Sequence record: MK573636
Length of the DNA: 64,000 nucleotides
DNA from: Escherichia phage vB_EcoM_PHB13
Reading direction: 5' to 3' (one strand)
Below, piece by piece: positions 10,318-63,074 of the stretch (positions are counted from its first letter, which is position 1; each line of letters opens with the position of its first letter). Position numbers and translations under genes: made by a program. The notes under the pieces were generated by a model. The model was given only the letters and a program-made list of their open reading frames with translations. It was not told where the DNA came from and made no database searches.

Positions 10318-10347
10318 TTGACAGGGGAGGTTAAACTCCCCTATAAT
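10318..10347 (+). promoter_or_regulatory. sigma70-like early promoter cassette
   Basis: TTGACA, 18-bp spacer GGGGAGGTTAAACTCCCC, TATAAT. Confidence 0.6.
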
Positions 10348-11461: not shown

Positions 11462-11490
11462 TTGACAGGGGATCACCGATCCCCTATAAT
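11462..11490 (+). promoter_or_regulatory. sigma70-like early promoter cassette
   Basis: TTGACA, spacer GGGGATCACCGATCCCC, TATAAT. Confidence 0.6.
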
Positions 11491-11948: not shown

Positions 11949-12227
11949 ATGATGCGAATTACTGCAACGCTGGATAAGACACACAAAGAAAGATTTTTCG
12001 GTATGATCTTAAAAACGCCGATTTTCGATAATTACCTTTATGTTGACTATAACGGTCACATTAGCTATAAATGTAAAAATGATATTCGTGATTCCTTTGG
12101 TGATAAATCACAAGCCGATATTCACGATCATTGGTGGAACCATGACGAACCTTTACGGGTTATCGCAGTTGATGTAAAAACAACAAAAGAAGCTGATAAG
12201 GTAGTGAATGATTATGAGCAAATTTAA
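11949..12227 (+). CDS. HxHW-family small protein, copy 3 of 6
   Basis: IHDHWWNHDEPLRVIAVDVKTTKEADKVV; AAGAGGA site. Confidence 0.55.
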   Translation: MMRITATLDKTHKERFFGMILKTPIFDNYLYVDYNGHISYKCKNDIRDSFGDKSQADIHDHWWNHDEPLRVIAVDVKTTKEADKVVNDYEQI

Positions 12228-12423
12228 AGATTATAAAGCATATCAACAGATCTTGCGAGTATACGAACCAGAGTTCGCCGAAAAGATGATGGAAGATGCA
12301 TCAAAATGCCCGTCCTTTTCTGGAAACAAAAACCATTATTCTACTGGTATTGTATCATGGAAAGAAACCGCATATACTCAACAATGGATAGATGTGTTTT
12401 CAAAAACTCTTGATTGGTGTTAA
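12208..12423 (+). CDS. small protein; tandem paralog A
   Basis: MSKFKDYKAY ... MMEDA ... W; paralogous to the next gene. Confidence 0.45.
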   Translation: MIMSKFKDYKAYQQILRVYEPEFAEKMMEDASKCPSFSGNKNHYSTGIVSWKETAYTQQWIDVFSKTLDWC

Positions 12424-12425
12424 TT

Positions 12426-12641
12426 ATGAGTAAATTTAAAGATTATCGAGCATATAAAGCGATCTGCGATATATTCGATGAAAAGACCGCTCATGCAATG
12501 ATGGAAGATGCAGAACAATATGAATCATTCGTCAATTCCAAAGATTGCACAGTAAACGAGGTTGTGTGCTGGAAAGATACAAAGTATGAAGAAAAATGGA
12601 TTACTGTGTATTACGGAGAACTAGAATATGAAATTAACTAA
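12426..12641 (+). CDS. small protein; tandem paralog B
   Basis: MSKFKDYRAY ... MMEDA ... W; ORF track start 12414 is TTG, ATG at 12426. Confidence 0.45.
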   Translation: MSKFKDYRAYKAICDIFDEKTAHAMMEDAEQYESFVNSKDCTVNEVVCWKDTKYEEKWITVYYGELEYEIN

Positions 12642-12948
12642 AAAGATTTTCCCAGAATTGCGTAACTGTCTGTTACTGGTTACTGAATATAAACCTTATA
12701 CGATCTACTTGTATGTTGATGAAAATCTGAAAATCCGTTACTATGATTATACGTCTCCAGTAATGAGATCATTTGCTCACGCGATAGCAAACAATTGTAT
12801 GAATCATAATCATTGGGTAAGTGATAATGATCATGATGCGTCAGAAGTTGTAGTGATCGCATGGAATCTATCACCAGCGGAAGCAGATCAAGCACGCATT
12901 AAGCATTATGCGAAAAACAATTGGTTTGACCTTATAAGTGAGGACTAA
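12628..12948 (+). CDS. HxHW-family small protein, copy 4 of 6
   Basis: MNHNHWVSDNDHDASEVVVIAWNLSPAEADQARIKHY. Confidence 0.5.
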   Translation: MKLTKKIFPELRNCLLLVTEYKPYTIYLYVDENLKIRYYDYTSPVMRSFAHAIANNCMNHNHWVSDNDHDASEVVVIAWNLSPAEADQARIKHYAKNNWFDLISED

Positions 12949-12952
12949 TATT

Positions 12953-13231
12953 ATGTTCAAAGTAGGTGATAAGTTTATTCTTAGTCGTGATATTCTCCCT
13001 AATCTGAAAGGTTGTATCATCAATCCTAGTAAAAATTCATGGTTTTATCTGTTTATCGACGACAAACTGAATGTACGCGCCGAATATAAAGAAGGTCTTC
13101 GTACTGGTCTAGGTTTCTTTCACGATCATGATCATAGCCATTGGCTAAACGGTGGATTCGAAGCAACGGTGCTAGCGGTTGATGTGACTTACACGAACAT
13201 CATAGAAAAATATCAAAAAATTATTTTATAA
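12953..13231 (+). CDS. HxHW-family small protein, copy 5 of 6
   Basis: FHDHDHSHWLNGGFEATVLAVDVTY; GAGGA site 9 nt upstream of ATG 12953. Confidence 0.5.
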   Translation: MFKVGDKFILSRDILPNLKGCIINPSKNSWFYLFIDDKLNVRAEYKEGLRTGLGFFHDHDHSHWLNGGFEATVLAVDVTYTNIIEKYQKIIL

Positions 13232-13237
13232 AAAGTG

Positions 13238-13266
13238 TTGACATAAGATCGGGTGTATAGCATAAT
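13238..13266 (+). promoter_or_regulatory. sigma70-like early promoter cassette
   Basis: TTGACA, 17-bp spacer, CATAAT inside perfect 8-bp inverted repeat GGGTGTAT/ATACACCC. Confidence 0.55.
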
Positions 13267-13312
13267 ACACCCATCGAAACGAGATACACTTTCTAACTAG
13301 GAGAATCAAATT

Positions 13313-13600
13313 ATGGCATACATCACTATCACTCTGAAAGTTAACAAATTTGCTCACGCTGCACACGAAACCGATAATGCAATCCGTAACAACAAGTTTG
13401 CACGTCTGGTACGCGATGCAGTAGCTAAAGAGTTCAACTTCAAATTTGCAGATGGTAAAGTTATCACTAAATGGACTCATGACGGCGAAACTAAAGTAGA
13501 ACTTGCTGACAACTTCGCAAATCAGGAATATGCACACCGCCGCATCAATGAAATCATCAGCGATGAACTCTACTACGGAGTACAGGAAGGTTTGTTTTAA
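13313..13600 (+). CDS. hypothetical early protein; paralog of 9997..10308
   Basis: 95 aa; shared AKEFN block. Confidence 0.5.
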   Translation: MAYITITLKVNKFAHAAHETDNAIRNNKFARLVRDAVAKEFNFKFADGKVITKWTHDGETKVELADNFANQEYAHRRINEIISDELYYGVQEGLF

Positions 13601-14965: not shown

Positions 14966-14994
14966 TTGACAGGGGAGACACCCTCCCCTATAAT
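14966..14994 (+). promoter_or_regulatory. sigma70-like early promoter cassette
   Basis: TTGACA, spacer GGGGAGACACCCTCCCC, TATAAT. Confidence 0.6.
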
Positions 14995-17097: not shown

Positions 17098-17127
17098 TTG
17101 ACAGGGGGATCGGTGATCCCCTATAAT
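17098..17127 (+). promoter_or_regulatory. sigma70-like early promoter cassette
   Basis: TTGACA, 18-bp spacer GGGGGATCGGTGATCCCC, TATAAT. Confidence 0.6.
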
Positions 17128-54743: not shown

Positions 54744-56546
54744 TTAACCTACCCTTAGCCAACGATAGACAGTTCTGTATGGAGGAAGAATACCAATCAT
54801 TGACGGGTCGGTATTTCCCTGATTAACTTTAACATTATCTTCGCGATATTTGGTAAACGCTGGACCTACTGCATCAGGATCTACCTGACAACCACCGATA
54901 ATAATATTTCCGTTATCATCTTTTACAAGAACTCGATCGTCGCTCTGTAATTCAGGAATCATATTTTTCTTGATCTGGTATGCAACATCACCACCGTTAC
55001 CCCCTGCGGTGTGTGTAGGTTGACCATGTGTATCAAGATCGTTGTTGTTTAGTGCGAAGTTTTGATCGCTTGCGTCAGAAGACCAACCAACTAAAAATTC
55101 TTTTTCTGCATAACGTACCCATGTACCAAATCCCATATATGTCGCTGGGTTAGCTGGGTTATGCGCATTTTCATAAATTGTGCCTATAGGATAGAAAATA
55201 TCGAATATGGAATAGATATCCATCACACGACCTGTATAATCTTCCATTGGGCGTTTAGTTGCTTGGCTTGGATTCTGGAAATCGGTATATTCAATTCGAT
55301 TTGTCAGAGTAACTTCATCTTCGTTATTAAGATAGATTTTATCTGCTTTTTCTTTAATACCGCCTACACCGTCCCATTCCATTAATGTTCCGATATCATT
55401 ATTAAACCAGCGAATTGTGATAGTATCTCGGTTATCTAGTGCTTTAGATAATTTAATACCAGTCACCACGCTGTTTTCGTCGAACATCAATGAATAATCT
55501 TCCCCAGATTCCACCCATTGACCGCCAGCAAGTACGCAGGTTTCTTCCGTTTCACCGTCAGCGCCTTCACAAATAAAGGAAGGTAAATCCGCATCACCCG
55601 CTTTAATCATTTGTGTGCCGTTGATCAGCAATTCAAATGAATTTGGATTAATAAGATCTCGCTTACTTACGCCTAATTCAACATTAGTAAATTCTTTCTT
55701 ATTAGCTAGTTCACCAACCCAAACTTCACCAGGGATGGATTCCAAAGTGGTCATTCCTGTTTCATAAACGCGGATTGTATGAGTAATATAGCTTGACCGG
55801 AAGGATGCGATACCGTCCATATAAGTTATGATTTGAATGGTATCACCCGCCGAACAAGGGAAGCGTAATTTAATGCTTTTACCGTCCAGCGGAACAATAT
55901 CACCGTTTTCACCGATTGATCCATAGTTAGAATCATCGGTTAAATCCTTGCCATAATAAAGCAAGTTACCGCGATAATACACTTCAACATTTCGAATATT
56001 GTAAGTATTGGAACCAAACACATTAGGGAAGTCTGTTTGTCCTTCGGTTGCAATATAAACTTCTTTGGCAACTGTGCTTAAATCGGAAGTGGTGATAGTA
56101 TCTACTCGTTTATTTTCGACATATTCCCAACGTCCAGGCGCACAATAAACCAATTCAACATCCATGAAATCTTTATACAACTCACGGTCGATTGGAGATC
56201 CCTTAATGGTATCACCTTGTGCTGGCTTCAACGTTACGTTATGTGCAGCCCATGAGCGCCAAACATCACGAAGTTTAATTGTTTTATTATAATCACTCGC
56301 GCTTCCTTTAGGCAATTCAACAGAAACAGCGTTGTTCGTTGTATTAATCGCCCATGCATCACCAAAATTTGGTTTTAATACTGGTTGTGTGTGAGTTTTC
56401 CACGCGCCGGATGCATGAGGGATATCACCATCCCCCAGCTTATTATAAAGTTCAGAAAAGTTGTCATTAATCTTTTGACCACCTTTTCTTAGATAATCAC
56501 CTGTACCGTCATCAACAACGTTACCGATATTAATTAATTGTTTCAT
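54744..56546 (-). CDS. 10: baseplate wedge subunit and tail pin
   Basis: 600 aa (T4 gp10 about 602); synteny. Confidence 0.7.
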   Translation of the reverse strand: MKQLINIGNVVDDGTGDYLRKGGQKINDNFSELYNKLGDGDIPHASGAWKTHTQPVLKPNFGDAWAINTTNNAVSVELPKGSASDYNKTIKLRDVWRSWAAHNVTLKPAQGDTIKGSPIDRELYKDFMDVELVYCAPGRWEYVENKRVDTITTSDLSTVAKEVYIATEGQTDFPNVFGSNTYNIRNVEVYYRGNLLYYGKDLTDDSNYGSIGENGDIVPLDGKSIKLRFPCSAGDTIQIITYMDGIASFRSSYITHTIRVYETGMTTLESIPGEVWVGELANKKEFTNVELGVSKRDLINPNSFELLINGTQMIKAGDADLPSFICEGADGETEETCVLAGGQWVESGEDYSLMFDENSVVTGIKLSKALDNRDTITIRWFNNDIGTLMEWDGVGGIKEKADKIYLNNEDEVTLTNRIEYTDFQNPSQATKRPMEDYTGRVMDIYSIFDIFYPIGTIYENAHNPANPATYMGFGTWVRYAEKEFLVGWSSDASDQNFALNNNDLDTHGQPTHTAGGNGGDVAYQIKKNMIPELQSDDRVLVKDDNGNIIIGGCQVDPDAVGPAFTKYREDNVKVNQGNTDPSMIGILPPYRTVYRWLRVG

Positions 56547-57397
56547 GTAGCAACCCCGATTTTAATAGTGTCTACGGCTTTAACTGCTAAACGAATATTT
56601 TCGCCAGTAGCCTTATACTCTGCATATACTTTATCGCCGGAACCGATGAAATAACGAACCGTGTATAGTTCATCTTCTGTCTTCTGCAAAACTGCATATT
56701 CCGTCGCATAAACTTTTCCGGCTTTAGAATCAATCATCAGTAGCGTTTCACTTGAACGCATTTTTGAACCGGATGTATTGCTAGCGGTAGTTAATAATTT
56801 GATGGAAACGTATTCTGTTTTTGCGGCAATAGCAACGTTTGTTGCTACTCCAGTTACGTTAACTGTTTTATCTAATGGCGTTGTTGTATCGGTAAACATA
56901 CTTTCGATACCCAATCTCCACGTTACGCGACTACCTTCAACGGCAGTACACCAAACAGTGACTTTTGAAAATGGTTGTGTTATTGTAGCATCACCGGAAT
57001 AACCGCTAATAGAATCACCTGCTTGAGTTCGAATATTGAGCGGTGTCGTCGTTGAAAGGCTACCGTTACTATTTATGAATACAACACCCTCGCCGACCTT
57101 TGCTTTAGGTAGAATAGCAATAAGTGCGCCTTGAGTTGTATCGATATCGTGTAGACTCCCAATCTCAACAGCGGAACCAGCGTAGCTTTGACGTGGATGT
57201 TTCTGATAGTATCCGGTTGCATGAATAACCATTCTTCCCACGCCGTGGTCTACGTCTTTAAACCGTTGATCAGCGAATGCGTCATAGATTGAATCAAAGT
57301 TATCGTTAATTTTATTACCGCCATCATATAAGATATCGCCAGTCGATGGATTGCCGACAGTACCTGTGTCTATTCTTTTCTTTGGAACTTGTGCCAT
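56543..57397 (-). CDS. 9: baseplate wedge protein, long-fibre socket
   Basis: 284 aa (T4 gp9 about 288); synteny. Confidence 0.65.
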   Translation of the reverse strand: MAQVPKKRIDTGTVGNPSTGDILYDGGNKINDNFDSIYDAFADQRFKDVDHGVGRMVIHATGYYQKHPRQSYAGSAVEIGSLHDIDTTQGALIAILPKAKVGEGVVFINSNGSLSTTTPLNIRTQAGDSISGYSGDATITQPFSKVTVWCTAVEGSRVTWRLGIESMFTDTTTPLDKTVNVTGVATNVAIAAKTEYVSIKLLTTASNTSGSKMRSSETLLMIDSKAGKVYATEYAVLQKTEDELYTVRYFIGSGDKVYAEYKATGENIRLAVKAVDTIKIGVAT

Positions 57398-57424: not shown

Positions 57425-57432
57425 TATTTATA
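57425..57432 (-). promoter_or_regulatory. T4-type late promoter
   Basis: Exact TATAAATA about 28 nt upstream of gene 9 ATG. Confidence 0.6.
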
Positions 57433-57467
57433 AAATACATACAAAAAAGCCGCCCACAAGGACGGCT
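57433..57467 (-). terminator. rho-independent terminator after methyltransferase gene
   Basis: AGCCGTCC-loop-GGGCGGCT hairpin followed on minus strand by TTTTTTGTATGTATTTT. Confidence 0.6.
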
Positions 57468-57472
57468 TATAA

Positions 57473-58312
57473 TTAAATGTCAAACAAATCTGAGAGCGTC
57501 CCAGACTCGCTTTCCTGTTTCGGTAAGATAATCTCCTTACTTTCTTCTATTTGTTCGTTAGGACGTGATTTAGGAGCTTCTACGGCTTCTTTCTCGTAAT
57601 ACCGAACCTCAACCACTTCTGTTAAAACGTTGGTACTATGCCATTCATCGCGATAGATTGATGTATCGATCCCACATCCGGCATAAGTCACCAAACCAGT
57701 TTGTTTGCTCCATTTTAGATATTTATTAGACTTCATGGTCCCGTCATAATAAGGTCTACCAGAATAGGCAAAACCAGCGGAACCAACAGGAACAATAAAA
57801 TAACCTACATCTGCAAACTTCTGGCCTAATGTCATAACCTTAAATTCAAATTCTCCGCCAGTGTACTCAAATACATCCTTTGTGTCGGTTGTATTGATTT
57901 TCCCGAAAGGTGGATTGCTGATCACCACATCGAATTTTTCGTTTGACTCAAATTCGAATACATCGCTGGTGATCCATTCTGCTTCCGGTAATAGTCGCTT
58001 GCCAATCCGCGCAAATTCTGGATTGAGTTCGACGCATACGATCTTTTCTGGCTTACAACGATGTAACATACAAAAAGATAAGCGACCGATCCCAGCACAA
58101 AGATCTAATACTTTTCCTGTGCAATGTGCATCGATGGTAAAATCCCATGCAAGCCCTTCTGGGGTAAAGAATGCACCGGAACCACCTAGCCCATCGCCAT
58201 GATAGTTATTATAGCAAAATTCTTTTTCTTCATATGTCAATGGGCGATCTGAATTAATCAACTCCATTGCTCGGTCGTGTAATTTTTGTTCTTGTTTAGA
58301 AAGTCGTGCCAT
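57473..58312 (-). CDS. N6-adenine methyltransferase, gamma-class motif order
   Basis: FFTP (motif X), VLDLCAGIGRLS (motif I), ISNPPFGK (motif IV NPPF) in that order. Confidence 0.6.
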   Translation of the reverse strand: MARLSKQEQKLHDRAMELINSDRPLTYEEKEFCYNNYHGDGLGGSGAFFTPEGLAWDFTIDAHCTGKVLDLCAGIGRLSFCMLHRCKPEKIVCVELNPEFARIGKRLLPEAEWITSDVFEFESNEKFDVVISNPPFGKINTTDTKDVFEYTGGEFEFKVMTLGQKFADVGYFIVPVGSAGFAYSGRPYYDGTMKSNKYLKWSKQTGLVTYAGCGIDTSIYRDEWHSTNVLTEVVEVRYYEKEAVEAPKSRPNEQIEESKEIILPKQESESGTLSDLFDI

Positions 58313-58644
58313 TATTTAACCTTTGCTGTGACGGTAACGCTATGCCCCAAATAAACATGAGACATAAAGAACACAAAGTTTTTAAATTGCGGATTCTTAC
58401 GAATCCATCGTTTCAATTTTCGAATGCAAGTTATACGATGGTCATAATTAGAATAACTAAATTCAATACCCTGTTTCATCATCTCGTGCATTTCTTCGTA
58501 TGTGTGCCATTGGTTATCATGTTTACAAAACCAATGAGTACCATAGAGTTTAGGATCTTGTGCACGTAGACCATAGTAATGCTTTTGCATTGGGAACTTA
58601 GCTTTATTCATTGTGTAATGCAATTTAATATTTACGCGTGCCAT
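58312..58644 (-). CDS. hypothetical protein
   Basis: 110 aa; translationally coupled to the methyltransferase gene (stop/start overlap). Confidence 0.4.
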   Translation of the reverse strand: MARVNIKLHYTMNKAKFPMQKHYYGLRAQDPKLYGTHWFCKHDNQWHTYEEMHEMMKQGIEFSYSNYDHRITCIRKLKRWIRKNPQFKNFVFFMSHVYLGHSVTVTAKVK

Positions 58645-58655
58645 TTTCTAGTTCC

Positions 58656-58889
58656 TCACATACCGAAAGTTGGATTATACACAAAATAGATAGCTTCGTC
58701 GATAGTCTTGAATCGTTTAGTGTCATTCATGAAGTTGATACCCTCCCATAGTTCATCGGTGTAATCGGCTAATGATGAATGAGTATGATCGATGATCTCT
58801 CCGATCTTTTCACCGTTCGCGATCACATCCCAACCGCAAGGGGATACCTGAATTGCTTCACAATTATCTGTAAATTTACGACGTGCCAT
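58656..58889 (-). CDS. hypothetical protein
   Basis: 77 aa; GGAGGA site; first gene after the cassette promoter. Confidence 0.45.
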   Translation of the reverse strand: MARRKFTDNCEAIQVSPCGWDVIANGEKIGEIIDHTHSSLADYTDELWEGINFMNDTKRFKTIDEAIYFVYNPTFGM

Positions 58890-58918
58890 AATTTATCCTC
58901 CGTTGTTTAGATGTGAGC

Positions 58919-58947
58919 ATTATACCTTTACCAGACAAGATTGTCAA
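58919..58947 (-). promoter_or_regulatory. sigma70-like promoter on minus strand
   Basis: TTGACA, 17-bp spacer, TATAAT, about 25 nt upstream of the GGAGGA site of the 58889 gene. Confidence 0.6.
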
Positions 58948-58952
58948 CACCA

Positions 58953-58988
58953 AAAACAGAAAAAGCCAACTCTCTCGAATTGGCTTTT
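58953..58988 (-). terminator. rho-independent terminator after gene 8
   Basis: AGCCAA-CTCTCTCGAA-TTGGCT hairpin followed on minus strand by TTTTTCTGTTTTT. Confidence 0.6.
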
Positions 58989-58999
58989 AAATCATACAC

Positions 59000-59995
59000 T
59001 TAGAACTCAAACAATACAGAAACAAGTTCTGTTTGATCTAATGACCGAACGATAGGTTGTCGGTTTTCCATGTAGATCATTTCTCCTGAGTGTGGCTCTA
59101 AGTCTTGCGGACGGTACTGATCTTTAACCGCTTTAACGTCTGGATCGCTAGGGCGTGCTTTCTTTTCCAATGGGTTAAGGATAATGCTTAACTGACGGAA
59201 ACCAGTATTACCCACTAACGCGGTAGTTGGGAATTGCGCAGAGTCCATATAAGCCTGAAAACGCAAAGTTACTACTTTCAGCCGATAAAGCAGATTATAG
59301 TCATTATACCAGGTGATCACATTGTCATAGCCCCAACGCGCCGGATCTTGTCGCAGTTCATCGGGGAACGGTACAACAATATGTTCATTGGTGCAACGGT
59401 TGATCGCCGCATCAGGTGGAATTGTGTACAAATATTCCCAACGATATCCGTCACCCATATCAATAGAATCGCCTTTCCCTACTGGTGGCGCGATTGATTC
59501 ATGCGTAGGGGTCCATTTTCCACCCAATTTCAAACACTCTACTTTTGCGTCAATGCTTGAAATAGAACAATAACCGCGATCAGGAACATCTGTCACTCGA
59601 TACACCATCCAACCGCTACCAACATCTGTACGGTTATATGGTGCTGAGTTTACAACAACAACGTCATTGATAAAGAACGTGCGCGGATTATCCTGTCCGG
59701 TATCACCCCAATCTTTACGAGGGATAACCGCATCAAGAAGTGATTTGTTAATCTTAACCGCCCCCATCATATGGGTCCACATATCAACAACGCCAGCCGT
59801 TGAATCGGTCGGATAAGGTGGGGCAAAGCCAACCTCTTTTTCGTTTTCTGACCACGGCTCCGAACGTCCAAACGTTCCATAAATTGTAATTTGATTTGCC
59901 TCATCGCCTACAGAATTATAGAAATTCAGAAGTTTTTCCGTTCTAAATTTACTAGTAATTATTGAGCGATAGATCACACTATTTTCATTAGCCAT
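59000..59995 (-). CDS. 8: baseplate wedge protein gp8
   Basis: 331 aa; SVIYR.I.TSKFRTEK.LNFYNS ... FGRSEPWS.NE.EVGFAPPYPTDS ... HSGEMIYMENR match T4 gp8. Confidence 0.9.
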   Translation of the reverse strand: MANENSVIYRSIITSKFRTEKLLNFYNSVGDEANQITIYGTFGRSEPWSENEKEVGFAPPYPTDSTAGVVDMWTHMMGAVKINKSLLDAVIPRKDWGDTGQDNPRTFFINDVVVVNSAPYNRTDVGSGWMVYRVTDVPDRGYCSISSIDAKVECLKLGGKWTPTHESIAPPVGKGDSIDMGDGYRWEYLYTIPPDAAINRCTNEHIVVPFPDELRQDPARWGYDNVITWYNDYNLLYRLKVVTLRFQAYMDSAQFPTTALVGNTGFRQLSIILNPLEKKARPSDPDVKAVKDQYRPQDLEPHSGEMIYMENRQPIVRSLDQTELVSVLFEF

Positions 59996-62900
59996 TAATT
60001 TTCCTCTGTGTCGGATTCTTCGGATCTCGTGGATTCCCTATATTATCCTTCAACCGTTTATCTACAAGTTCACGGAACATAGAGAATGTTACCGCCGATT
60101 GGTCAAACAGTGGACTCATTGCAAATCTTCGTTCGCTTGCTTTAAGTCCGTGGAACAATTCGCTGTTCTCCTGATCATATTCAGGAGGAACGGGGAACTC
60201 TTCGCCCATTGTCGGTGACGTTAAGTATAATGCTTTTCCGGTAAGCGGGTCTTTCTTAATGTTTCCGTCAACGTCAAGGTCTGCCACCCGATCAGGATAC
60301 ACGCTAGGCAATCCGCTGTCAAACTTATAATTTTTTAGAGATTGAATTATCGTCTCTGTGTGTTTCATGCTTAACCCGCTGTTAATGAACATCGTAAGCA
60401 GGGTAACACCGATAAACCCAAAGCCGACAGGATGAACGAATCGCATTACATCATTTGCATAGCGAGAAACTGGCAATGCACTTTTAATCTTCATGGTGTA
60501 TTGGCTTCGTGAGCGGTTGATATAGTCGATTGAACTACTCAACAACTCTTTACCACGTACACCAACAAGGATCATCCCTTCAAACGCTGTTTTCTCTGAT
60601 TTGATCACTTGACCTTCTTCGAACCGCCCGATCAGGTTATGAATGGTTACTCGCCAGCGTAGGCGACCACCTTCATATTCCCTTTCAAGATACGTCACGT
60701 TAGCCCGTCCGGTTTGAGTATAGATCGTGCGACCTACGATATCCTCGTCAATGTTCGTTGAACTAACGACAATATCATACTCTAGTCCGGCTTGCGATTC
60801 AACCTCAATTTCCACATCTTCATTATACAGTAACTTAAACAGGAACTTATAAGAAGCCTCCACGCCCTTAGTGGAATAAAAATCTGATTTGCGGGATTCA
60901 AAGAATCTTACTACCGCATCTCGCTTGTTTTTGTCTGCATAGATGTTTCGTTTGTTCATTTCTGACCAAAGATACTCATATGCATCTTGCTCGCGTGGAT
61001 ATTTGTTTTTAATCAGATTTTTTAGTTTATTATAATATGTTCCTGAACCATCACTTAAGAATTGCAGATAATATTCAGAGAATTTTCTGAAATTTTCGTT
61101 CTCAAGTAAAAAGCTATCCGGTGTCATCTTATTCAGTAAAGGTCGCAAATCTGGATCTTGCTCTCGATCGTAGTGAACCGGAACCCAGGGAACCTCTCGA
61201 ACCTGATTTTGCAATTCAGCAACAAGTGCTACATTTGTTGGCTTCCAGTATACACCAACTTGATCACGAACACGGTAATTAAATTGATAGAATCCTATGA
61301 TCTCTCCCGTGTTTTTATGGAACATTACACCGGATGCATATTGTTTGAATCCTTCAAATTTAACATTGTTCAGATAACAGGTCACGGTCCCCTTATCATA
61401 AACTTCTCGGTTGACCCTATTTTGATCAAGAATGCCGGACGTATCAACTTCTTGAGTATAGATAACCTCTGGATAAACAACCAACGGGCGATTATCATTT
61501 GTGATCCACACACGGACACCGTTTCGACGCATCCATGTATAATCAGCCTCATTATAATACGCTTGCGGTCCTAACTCCCAAATACGCAAATCATCATAAC
61601 TTGCTCTGAAAGTAGTTTGATGTATTTTCTTATCAGTTAGATAAGTTGGCTCCTGAGAATATTTCACAGCTTCGCCTAATTCATATTTCGCGGCAGTTTC
61701 TGGATCAGGTAAAATGCTTTCGAAGTGATGATTATAATGGCTTATGAACACCTCATAACCATTGGTTGACATATTACTGAACCCATGCTGAATATATTCC
61801 CTTTCCTGCGGAGTGTTGCCAAATACTCTCTGAAAAGACAGACCATCACTCCCTATTAAGTATACACCCGCATCATCTGACGGAACAACGTTTTCTGGTT
61901 TAGTTGGATCTTGATAACGCTGTTTAACTTCACCCGTAACAAATACAAGCAATTTACCGTCGATCACATCCATTTTCTGAATGACAGCTTTATCATTTCC
62001 TGTTACTCGGATAACATCAGGATCGAATATTTTTTCTCCAAACGTAGGCGAACCCTGTACGGTATCGACCGGAGTATTCTTAAGGCGAATCCGGCGAATA
62101 ACATCTTTAGCACCAACCCACAAATAGTCATCACTGCACGCCATAGCTTCGGCGTATTTTGTGGTGTCCCCTGTTAATCTGGAAAATACACCAAAGACCT
62201 CAACATCAAACCCTAAGTCGTTTTCGTCACCAACCTTTGCAAAAGTGATCGTATCATCACTAAATCGAACATCGTCCGCGCTCCATCGAGTATCGCTAGC
62301 TTGTCGTCCGTAAAAGATTCGGTCATATCCTAAAACGTAAGTAGTGGTTTTAGACTGATAAACGCATGTGCGGGAAACCGGATTGCCTACACGATCATTA
62401 AAAGCCTTGTATGCTTTCCATGATTGACCTTTATCATTTGACACTTTCACGATCGGCTGGAACCGTTCGAAAAGGTACAAAACACCGTTCATTTCCGCTA
62501 ACATAGTGCGGTTTATATCAATACAAACTTTTTCTATGTGATCCTGTATTTCATGAAAGTTCTCATCAACTACAATGTAGTTTGAGATATTTGTCATGTT
62601 TGCGTATTCAGGACTAAAGACAAAATCTTCCTTCATCAATGATGCTTGAATCAGGTCAGTATTAAACTTGACATACTCTCGATTATCGTATGTAAATTTT
62701 TCCTTTATAAACTCATTTGCAAGGTTGAACTCGCGCATCATAGAAAAATTATATGCGTTTGTTTTAAATGTCTGAAACTCTTCTGTTTCAATCCATTTAC
62801 TTTGTTCAAATCCTTCTGCGGCTACTGCTACACGAAACTTGTAATAAAATTCTGGAAAAAGGTTTTTATCCTCAAACCAGTTTTGGTCGGCAGTATATCC

Positions 62901-63074
62901 CAGGTTTACCCAGCTTAACTCATCGACGGGGATGATCTCCCCGTCTCGTGTTCTGGTTTCGGCTAACTCCACAAAATAAAAGAAGTTTTCGCCTACGTCA
63001 TCCCATGTGATATACGCCTGATTAGCAGACAATTTTTCTATTGTCAAACTAGTTACACTAGGCGCTTTAATCAT
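59988..63074 (-). CDS. 7: baseplate wedge initiator gp7
   Basis: 1028 aa (T4 gp7 about 1032); synteny 6 - 7 - 8. Confidence 0.75.
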   Translation of the reverse strand: MIKAPSVTSLTIEKLSANQAYITWDDVGENFFYFVELAETRTRDGEIIPVDELSWVNLGYTADQNWFEDKNLFPEFYYKFRVAVAAEGFEQSKWIETEEFQTFKTNAYNFSMMREFNLANEFIKEKFTYDNREYVKFNTDLIQASLMKEDFVFSPEYANMTNISNYIVVDENFHEIQDHIEKVCIDINRTMLAEMNGVLYLFERFQPIVKVSNDKGQSWKAYKAFNDRVGNPVSRTCVYQSKTTTYVLGYDRIFYGRQASDTRWSADDVRFSDDTITFAKVGDENDLGFDVEVFGVFSRLTGDTTKYAEAMACSDDYLWVGAKDVIRRIRLKNTPVDTVQGSPTFGEKIFDPDVIRVTGNDKAVIQKMDVIDGKLLVFVTGEVKQRYQDPTKPENVVPSDDAGVYLIGSDGLSFQRVFGNTPQEREYIQHGFSNMSTNGYEVFISHYNHHFESILPDPETAAKYELGEAVKYSQEPTYLTDKKIHQTTFRASYDDLRIWELGPQAYYNEADYTWMRRNGVRVWITNDNRPLVVYPEVIYTQEVDTSGILDQNRVNREVYDKGTVTCYLNNVKFEGFKQYASGVMFHKNTGEIIGFYQFNYRVRDQVGVYWKPTNVALVAELQNQVREVPWVPVHYDREQDPDLRPLLNKMTPDSFLLENENFRKFSEYYLQFLSDGSGTYYNKLKNLIKNKYPREQDAYEYLWSEMNKRNIYADKNKRDAVVRFFESRKSDFYSTKGVEASYKFLFKLLYNEDVEIEVESQAGLEYDIVVSSTNIDEDIVGRTIYTQTGRANVTYLEREYEGGRLRWRVTIHNLIGRFEEGQVIKSEKTAFEGMILVGVRGKELLSSSIDYINRSRSQYTMKIKSALPVSRYANDVMRFVHPVGFGFIGVTLLTMFINSGLSMKHTETIIQSLKNYKFDSGLPSVYPDRVADLDVDGNIKKDPLTGKALYLTSPTMGEEFPVPPEYDQENSELFHGLKASERRFAMSPLFDQSAVTFSMFRELVDKRLKDNIGNPRDPKNPTQRKING

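Follow-up and report, generated by a model that had tools for sequence, protein, structure and literature searches.

The gene 8–gene 9 island and its distribution

The 64,000-nucleotide stretch of Escherichia phage vB_EcoM_PHB13 (sequence record MK573636) analysed here, which is referred to as the window, carries a 1.6-kb minus-strand operon between the baseplate genes 8 and 9. This operon, referred to as the island, consists of two small genes, ORF77 and ORF110, and of a gene for a 279-amino-acid methyltransferase, which was predicted to be an orphan DNA adenine methyltransferase tethered to the phage sliding clamp by its C-terminal peptide. In accordance with an initial annotation of this DNA, which had described a three-gene minus-strand unit between genes 8 and 9, ORF77 was located at 58656..58889 (77 amino acids (aa)), ORF110 at 58312..58644 (110 aa) and the methyltransferase gene at 57473..58312, all on the minus strand. 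The three genes were assigned to phrog_16603 (E 1.8e-54), phrog_12630 and phrog_3820, respectively, the last being the family of RB49ORF143w. A Shine-Dalgarno sequence (GGAGGA/GAGGAA) precedes each gene, and the stop codon of ORF110 overlaps the ATG of the methyltransferase gene (TAATG).

On the minus strand the gene order was gp7 (59988-63074), gp8, the three small genes, gp9, gp10, gp11 and gp12. The upstream flank is gene 8 for a baseplate wedge subunit (59000..59995, minus strand), a 331-aa ORF that is gp8 in Phi1, RB49 and GEC-3S. The downstream flank is gene 9 for the baseplate wedge/tail-fibre connector (56543..57397, minus strand), a 284-aa ORF annotated as gp9, and gene 9 was present in 1473 phage records. 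A 3.6-kb stretch around the island exhibited 95-99% identity to 57 complete Krischvirus genomes (RB49, Phi1, JSE, GEC-3S and relatives), with JEP8 as the closest match (99.2%), and the flanks carry gp7, gp8, gp9 and gp10 annotations in these 57 near-identical records. By this comparison the window was assigned to Krischvirus, that is, to an RB49/Phi1/JSE-like T4-type coliphage.

It was found that the whole 1.6-kb unit occupies the gp8/gp9 site in all of the 57 complete Krischvirus genomes. Between gp8 and gp9, the Aeromonas Tulanevirus ZHF and a Slopekvirus-like Klebsiella phage each have 9 nt and T2 has 63 nt, and the island was absent from the junction in the T2, Tulanevirus and Slopekvirus-like genomes compared. 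Because it is present in every complete Krischvirus genome and absent from the junction in these other genomes, the comparison identified the island as an insertion specific to, and fixed in, Krischvirus. The earlier description of an accessory island therefore holds for the T4 superfamily but not for the genus, in which the three genes are core.

The island itself is not new. It corresponds to RB49ORF140w-143w, which were deposited in 2003, and ORF143w appeared in a 2006 list as a ‘methyltransferase small domain’ ORF. The GenBank record of GEC-3S already annotates the island promoter and both terminators. Both the island and the concept of the promoter-early stem-loop (PeSL) cassette are already in GenBank and the literature, and as an accessory island the cassette is known and unremarkable.

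In Acinetobacter phage 133, the gp8/gp9 gap (L019, 2156-2428) contains a different insertion with a 90-aa ORF on the opposite strand, and insertions into the gp8/gp9 junction may recur among T4-type phages. A natural deletion of the island was also sought. The sole partial record, Skers (MW748999.1, 155 kb), breaks inside the methyltransferase gene beside a terminase gene; its positions 12217-13598 match only 58119-59500 of the window and the record then jumps to the terminase gene. Because gene 9, which is presumably essential, would also be lost, this candidate was set aside as an assembly or rearrangement problem, the record being probably misassembled or rearranged.

Promoter and terminators of the island

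The sigma-70 promoter that had been claimed for the island was located at 58919..58947 on the minus strand. It matches the consensus TTGACA-17-TATAAT at 12/12 positions with a 17-nt spacer, and is the sole 12/12 match within 52-64 kb. Nine perfect sigma-70 matches were found in the whole window against 0.14 expected by chance, a number reached in 0/100 shuffles. A stem-loop terminator with a 12-bp stem followed by a T-tract lies after gene 8 at 58961..58988 on the minus strand; its folding free energy was −15.6 kcal/mol (z −4.0), and it ends 13 nt before the −35 box. The other end of the island is closed by a terminator after the methyltransferase gene (57447..57468, minus strand), which has a 9-bp GC-rich stem followed by T6 and a folding free energy of −18.4 kcal/mol (z −5.6). 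Terminators at both ends and a late promoter just downstream for gene 9 had likewise been proposed, and all of them were recovered. The late promoter of genes 9-12, TATAAATA, lies at 57425..57432 on the minus strand and precedes the gp9 ATG by 27 nt. Copies of TATAAATA in the window were on the late-gene strand in 8 of 9 cases, but their number was not significant (9 observed versus 5.7 expected). A significance derived from the count was rejected, and the element is supported by its strand and position only.

The head of the island was compared with the PeSL cassettes of RB49/Phi1 (Arbiol et al. 2010, PMC2839356; Comeau et al. 2014, PMC4122927). In these cassettes, a stable stem-loop terminator and a consensus sigma-70 promoter are combined directly upstream of ORFans, and a few of them lie inside the virion module beside genes of unassigned function (PMC2839356). 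It was suggested that they drive modular insertion and keep early read-through out of the late genes (PMC2839356; PMC4122927). In the island, the sigma-70 boxes are spaced by 17 nt (16-18 nt are required), a stable stem-loop is adjacent, and the cassette stands directly upstream of an ORFan, with GGAGGA and then the ATG of ORF77. By these features the island head fits the published PeSL description, including a subclass in which the stem-loop is upstream of the −35 box. The island thus shares with the classic PeSL a consensus sigma-70 promoter and a stable stem-loop ahead of an ORFan, but in the classic form, of which four copies occur at 10.3-17.1 kb of the window, the stem-loop separates the −35 box from the −10 box. 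Reporter assays of PeSL activity cover other PeSLs and not the island cassette (PMC2839356), and in its searchable text the PeSL literature does not discuss this cassette.

The four classic copies are perfect sigma-70 promoters on the plus strand at 10318-10347, 11462-11490, 14966-14994 and 17098-17127, the spacer of which forms a GGGGA...TCCCC hairpin. By this arrangement they were recognised as textbook RB49/Phi1 PeSLs, marking a hyperplastic region of early ORFans.

The catalytic core of the methyltransferase

The motif order FFTP-DLCAGIG-NPPF, on which the assignment to the gamma class had originally been based, was found to correspond to motifs X, I and IV. FFTP (motif X, residues 48-51) is encoded at 58160..58171, DLCAGIG (motif I, the S-adenosylmethionine-binding loop, residues 70-76) at 58085..58105 and NPPF (motif IV, catalytic, residues 133-136) at 57905..57916, all on the minus strand. 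G46-A-F-F-T-P51, L71-C-A-G-I-G76 as well as N133, P134, F136 and G137 were invariant in 36 homologues. The AlphaFold model was confident for residues 1-240 and disordered from residue ∼243 to the end, and it was tentatively superposed on HsdM, M.TaqI, PacII and MmeI. The Pfam model Eco57I passed its cut-off (27.4 versus 25.3), N6_Mtase did not (16.7 versus 20.4), and the generic MTS model scored 38.6; among the 36 family members, Eco57I matched 15 and N6_Mtase 11. PADLOC models of DNA methyltransferases aligned from residue 35-46, and thus across FFTP, with E values of 5e-17 for mad2 and 1e-9 for type II models. Searches of the PDB with the methyltransferase sequence and with profiles of the family alignment gave weak Rossmann-level matches only, by which the substrate was not settled.

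In the database records the family is annotated inconsistently as DNA methyltransferase, PrmC, rRNA methyltransferase or hypothetical protein. Identity with the release-factor methyltransferase PrmC/HemK was rejected, as TIGR03534 scored 37.6 bits against a cut-off of 199.1 and covered only the Rossmann part (residues 64-137), and the motif is NPPF and not NPPY. The note in the RB49 record of a 16S rRNA m2G methyltransferase RsmC was rejected as well, since NF007023 scored 29.2 bits against a cut-off of 295. Taken from motifs, profiles and model, the catalytic domain appears to be an N6-adenine methyltransferase domain of the gamma class (HsdM/TaqI-like), which by itself does not prove a DNA substrate.

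No cognate nuclease was found beside the methyltransferase gene: Pfam, NCBIfam and PADLOC detected no nuclease or defence domain in ORF77 and ORF110, and the flanking genes are baseplate genes. For this reason the enzyme was regarded as an orphan methyltransferase, as had been supposed before. There was also no conserved neighbouring gene common to the methyltransferase lineages compared. Krischvirus additionally has a T4-type dam gene (in Phi1, L009, 39544-40356) and hence two adenine methyltransferases; the C-terminus of Dam exhibits no clamp-like motif.

The C-terminal tail and its likeness to gp43

The folded part of the methyltransferase is followed by a disordered, acidic and proline-rich linker (residues 243-271; 57500..57586, minus strand), with a predicted local distance difference test (pLDDT) score below 50, and by the C-terminal peptide TLSDLFDI (57476..57499, minus strand). 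The pLDDT was below 50 over residues 247-278. From its likeness to the end of the Phi1 DNA polymerase gp43, TLSDLFDI was predicted to be a motif that binds the gp45 sliding clamp. This polymerase-like, putatively clamp-binding tail, which would be the most informative feature of the locus, had been missed in the initial annotation.

The methyltransferase ends with ...GTLSDLFDI* and Phi1 gp43 with ...ASLTDLFDI*, while Phi1 gp55 ends with PSLDQFYEIEN. The Phi1 gp43 end aligned residue for residue with the RB69 gp43 C-terminus, ...EKKASLFDMFD(F), and Phi1 gp45 was homologous over its full length to RB69 gp45 (1b77/1b8h). We take the RB69 gp43 C-terminus to be the gp45-binding peptide crystallised on the clamp (entry 1B8H), a structure of the RB69 polymerase peptide on gp45 that was reportedly obtained by Shamoo and Steitz in 1999. 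Among 2662 ORFs of a whole Krischvirus genome, gp43 and the methyltransferase were the only real genes ending in LFDx.

TLSDLFDI was identical in RB49 and GEC-3S. Relatives at 65-68% identity keep the motif (TLTDLFDI, SLSMFDI) while their linkers diverge; the linker varied in length and sequence among relatives, and its sequence was not conserved even in the 68%-identical P0002. In KP15 the methyltransferase ends with SDLFTFTIE and gp43 with NDLFGDW, and the corresponding ends in RB16 are NLFTFTIE and TLFGDDW. In both phages the methyltransferase gene is situated inside the replication cluster, where it is flanked by gene 61.1 of the primase region and the helicase gene 41. In the homologue alignment the tail was carried by the T4-like phage versions and was missing from the prophage homologues of ∼238 aa. 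Recent gene conversion from gene 43 was considered as the source of the tail; only the last 14 nt of the two DNA sequences were identical (27/48 overall), so that conversion was not supported, nor was it needed.

The T4 proteins gp33 and gp55 bind gp45 via C-terminal LDFL motifs (PMC9690074), and a DNA methyltransferase was not listed among the gp45 clients in the literature searched. Like the clients gp43, gp33 and gp55, the island enzyme has a short hydrophobic/acidic peptide at its extreme C-terminus with a flexible segment before it, and this peptide is nearly identical to that of the cognate gp43. It differs from them in that its binding to gp45 is predicted from sequence.

Tails and genomic contexts in the methyltransferase family

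An exhaustive search yielded 730 relatives of the methyltransferase, and tail statistics were obtained on 143 full-length representatives. A QLxLF-like pentapeptide was present in the last 12 residues of 22/143 representatives, compared with 0/3043 other 12-residue windows of the same proteins. ‘LF’ was observed in the last 10 residues of 47/143 representatives versus 1.5% of other windows, and in 43 of the 79 family members with a tail of at least 12 residues. Many homologues end with QLSLF, QLTLF, QLALF, QFSLF or xDLFxxAA after a disordered linker. QL[SD]LF is the canonical bacterial beta-clamp-binding motif, and is said to have been described as such by Dalrymple et al. in 2001. The tails of many homologues are like this pentapeptide of polymerases, MutS/L, Hda and transposases, whereas the tail of the island enzyme is of the phage gp43 type and not QLxLF. 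On a neighbour-joining tree, tailed and tail-less forms were interspersed. Two tandem clamp-type motifs were seen in the tails of P0184, P0187 and P0140 (DLFDETARNQQELF, SLFDNCTPQLSLFA and GLFAAPAPLQQNLF).

The genomic contexts of QLxLF-tailed members were taken from metagenome and genome contigs. One tailed member was on a plasmid, adjoining parAB and a relaxase gene, and another had two further DNA methyltransferases beside it on an integrase-plus-relaxase element. Further ones were found in a siphophage replication module right after DnaB, on a phage-like contig, and together with ParB and RES-Xre genes in a Pseudomonas island. The sequence retrieved around these members showed no clamp gene, so that the elements presumably use the host replisome. 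A tblastn search with P0122 and P0143 for cultured phages with QLxLF-tailed relatives returned the same T4-like set only.

Members of phrog_3820 occur without ORF77 and ORF110 in RB16, KP15 and their relatives, Aeromonas T4-like phages, Sinorhizobium phiM12, jumbo phages and plasmids, and also at the extreme end of enterobacterial prophages, beside host genes. The closest non-phage homologues (53-61% identity, tail-less) stood last in a lambdoid prophage or prophage remnant, with host genes right beside them. These copies were found in Citrobacter and Enterobacter chromosomes (L003-L008, with the gene at 10001-10717/10729), and the copy of Citrobacter freundii recurs on many contigs of this species, 887 of them being listed for one sequence cluster.

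A putative clamp-tethered methyltransferase and its alternatives

There is direct support for the anatomy of the operon, for its insertion as a feature of the genus, for a gamma-class amino-methyltransferase core followed by a disordered tail, for the near-identity of the tail's end to the C-terminus of gp43, and for the enrichment of clamp-type motifs in the family. We propose that the island is a PeSL-headed operon, fixed in Krischvirus, for a clamp-tethered orphan DNA methyltransferase, and assign to this reading a probability of roughly 0.6. Host sigma-70 RNA polymerase would start at the consensus promoter, presumably soon after infection, and ORF77, ORF110 and the methyltransferase gene would be transcribed as one message ending at the hairpin that precedes the late promoter of gene 9. 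The last product would be an orphan HsdM/TaqI-like N6-adenine DNA methyltransferase without a separate target-recognition domain, the catalytic core of which is followed by the predicted disordered linker of ∼30 residues and by TLSDLFDI, a near copy of the end of the phage's own gp43. Through this peptide the enzyme may dock to gp45 where this sliding clamp is loaded on phage DNA, and new phage DNA would then be methylated at or just behind the fork, ahead of the host restriction enzymes. Such adenine methylation might protect the progeny genomes, with their unmodified cytosine, from restriction. ORF77 and ORF110 would be an unrelated mobile module that shares the operon by chance. Family members on plasmids, integrative elements and those phages around whose copies no clamp gene was seen, which presumably use the host replisome, often have QLxLF or xDLF ends. 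The broader proposal is that mobile elements couple their orphan DNA methyltransferases to the replisome by a C-terminal peptide matched to the clamp that copies the element, gp45 in T4-type phages and DnaN beta in plasmids, integrative elements and phages on the host replisome, for methylation at the fork and anti-restriction; it has about an even chance of being right.

The clamp-tether reading appears to be new, and well supported by sequence statistics. No paper was found in which a DNA methyltransferase of a phage, plasmid or bacterium is described as having a clamp-binding motif, and no direct literature was found on the methylome of RB49-like phages, the island enzyme or clamp-binding phage methyltransferases. 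A paper on the ‘unknown DNA modification’ of KP15/KP27 did not notice the methyltransferase gene.

Several points weigh against the proposed clamp-tethered enzyme. By high-performance liquid chromatography/mass spectrometry, no modified nucleosides were detectable in the DNA of Krischvirus TB34, in a study where adenine methylation is not discussed (PMC13390438). RB49 DNA is cut by DraI, HpaII and NheI (PMC4041780), so that blanket adenine methylation is excluded and any methylation would have to be site-specific or sparse. Since the phage has a dam gene as well, the benefit of adding the island methyltransferase is not obvious. No target-recognition domain is visible, as the chain is folded up to residue ∼240 and disordered beyond it. 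The family can do without the tail, which is missing from the enterobacterial prophage, phiM12 and Aeromonas AS-zj versions; given the tail-less phiM12 and AS-zj versions, the tether would be an optional add-on and not a part of the catalytic mechanism. In RB16/KP15, the tail (FTFxIE) shares only the xLF core with the cognate gp43. Moreover, gp45-type and beta-type motifs share the DLF core, and sequence alone does not decide which clamp is bound.

The study of TB34 also reported that the Krischviruses SAP and TB34 are 99.96% identical, and that SAP has glucosyl-hydroxymethylcytosine and TB34 has none, with no known pathway genes; its authors left this difference unexplained (PMC13390438).

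If the likeness of the tail to gp43 were a coincidence or a relic, the enzyme would be a free-acting orphan DNA adenine methyltransferase that does not bind the clamp. Tail-less family members exist and are presumably active, short linear motifs arise easily, and the RB16/KP15 tails match their own gp43 in nothing but the xLF core, all of which would agree with a free-acting enzyme. We nevertheless consider it unlikely, because the five-residue C-terminal identity to gp43, the one protein known to bind the clamp by this peptide, has a chance of roughly 3e-4 per proteome (a composition-based estimate), the motif is conserved while the linker diverges, and QLxLF is enriched at the C-termini of the family (22/143 versus 0/3043). 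A non-DNA substrate is distinctly improbable. As an rRNA or tRNA (m6A or m2G) methyltransferase or a PrmC-like protein-glutamine methyltransferase, as several GenBank records have it, the enzyme would act on host translation. The NCBIfam scores, however, were far under the cut-offs (37.6 versus 199 for PrmC and 29.2 versus 295 for RsmC), and the profiles of DNA methyltransferases align across FFTP. The pair of GAFFTP and NPPFG is typical of HsdM, and its presence in the island enzyme argues in the same direction. In addition, the clamp-type tails and the replication modules, ParB and other DNA methyltransferases nearby only make sense for a DNA enzyme.

An abundant early protein might also use its tail to occupy gp45 or the host beta clamp, thereby timing replication or late transcription or hindering the host replisome, with methylation being secondary. 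Such a regulatory or competitive tail would fit the activation of T4 late transcription by gp45 via gp33 and gp55 and the DLF core shared by phage and bacterial motifs; according to a recent report, phage Mu uses the beta clamp for late transcription. We give it a slim chance, since every catalytic motif is invariant across the family and like tails are found where there is no late-transcription programme, on plasmids and integrative elements. It is highly improbable that the three genes form one system, such as a compact toxin-antidote or restriction-modification-like module with ORF77 or ORF110 acting as the methyltransferase's partner. The genes are co-transcribed, ORF110 is translationally coupled to the methyltransferase gene, and all three are conserved together in every Krischvirus. 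But ORF77 and ORF110 occur together in Vequintavirus genomes without the methyltransferase, which in turn occurs without them in RB16, KP15, Aeromonas phages, phiM12, prophages and plasmids; neither small ORF has a nuclease or defence-system domain, and where ORF110 was swapped for a 72% allele, the methyltransferase stayed 95-99% identical.

Comparison with known systems

Compared with type I HsdM, M.TaqI and the Eco57I family, the island enzyme has a core of only ∼240 aa without the C-terminal target-recognition domain. It has neither an HsdS partner nor a nuclease nearby, and differs further by its disordered tail with the putative clamp motif. T4 Dam and the island enzyme are both orphan phage adenine methyltransferases that are assumed to be protective, but they belong to different classes and their genes are unrelated. 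The nearest analogy to the proposed tether is found in eukaryotes, where DNMT1 binds PCNA: a DNA methyltransferase with a clamp-binding motif and a preference for newly replicated DNA (PMC9690074). DNMT1 is, however, a C5-cytosine maintenance enzyme with an N-terminal PIP box, unrelated in sequence and different in its biological purpose.

If the tail binds the clamp, the enzyme would be delivered to every loaded clamp, which would explain how phage or plasmid DNA with unmodified bases is methylated fast enough to outrun restriction. A DNA-modifying enzyme would then be added to the short list of gp45 clients, and many methyltransferases of mobile elements to the beta-clamp interactome. Prokaryotes and viruses would thereby have an equivalent of DNMT1-PCNA and a general, hitherto undescribed strategy against restriction, in which a short linear motif would be re-tuned as the gene moves between elements with different replisomes. 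phrog_3820 occurs in therapeutic-candidate coliphages and in Klebsiella phages, where methylation affects host range, and a compact adenine methyltransferase of 240 aa with a portable tether could be a possible tool.

ORF77 and ORF110

Neither ORF77 nor ORF110 matched any Pfam, NCBIfam or PADLOC model, which bears out the remark in the initial annotation that the two upstream ORFs have no recognisable motifs. ORF77 homologues were found only in Krischvirus and in three Vequintavirus records, where they adjoin an ORF110 homologue, and ORF110 homologues only in Krischvirus and rV5-like Vequintavirus phages (∼59% identity). In FV3 (JQ031132.1, 12851-13422), the ORF77 homologue lies directly upstream of the ORF110 homologue; the two genes are adjacent in the rV5-like phages FV3 and HMD-6, with 77% and 60% identity. 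No methyltransferase homologue was detected in the rV5-like phages carrying ORF77/ORF110. In a database of 5.8 billion proteins, ORF110 was represented by only 5 clusters, and its AlphaFold2 model was poor (pLDDT 62).

Because ORF77 and ORF110 occur together in phages without the methyltransferase, which also occurs without them, they were regarded as its co-passengers and not as its partners, and a role as specificity or nuclease partners was rejected on the basis of this distribution. From their homologues, the two genes were identified as a mobile two-gene module shared between unrelated coliphage families. The island is by the same comparison a composite of this module and a separately travelling methyltransferase gene.

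Two alleles of ORF110 were distinguished within Krischvirus, with ∼100% and ∼72% amino-acid identity (the comparison being with L001 and L002, 3313-3642, of which L002 is RB49, AY343333.1). Around these alleles, ORF77 was 98-100% and the methyltransferase 95-99% identical, a pattern that marks a very local mosaic replacement inside one operon. In the RB49 record (AY343333.1, 3630-3876), the ORF77 homologue is split into two tiny ORFs, 140w and 141w, and tblastn needed two pieces to align it, which looks like a frameshift or a sequencing error of the 2003 record.

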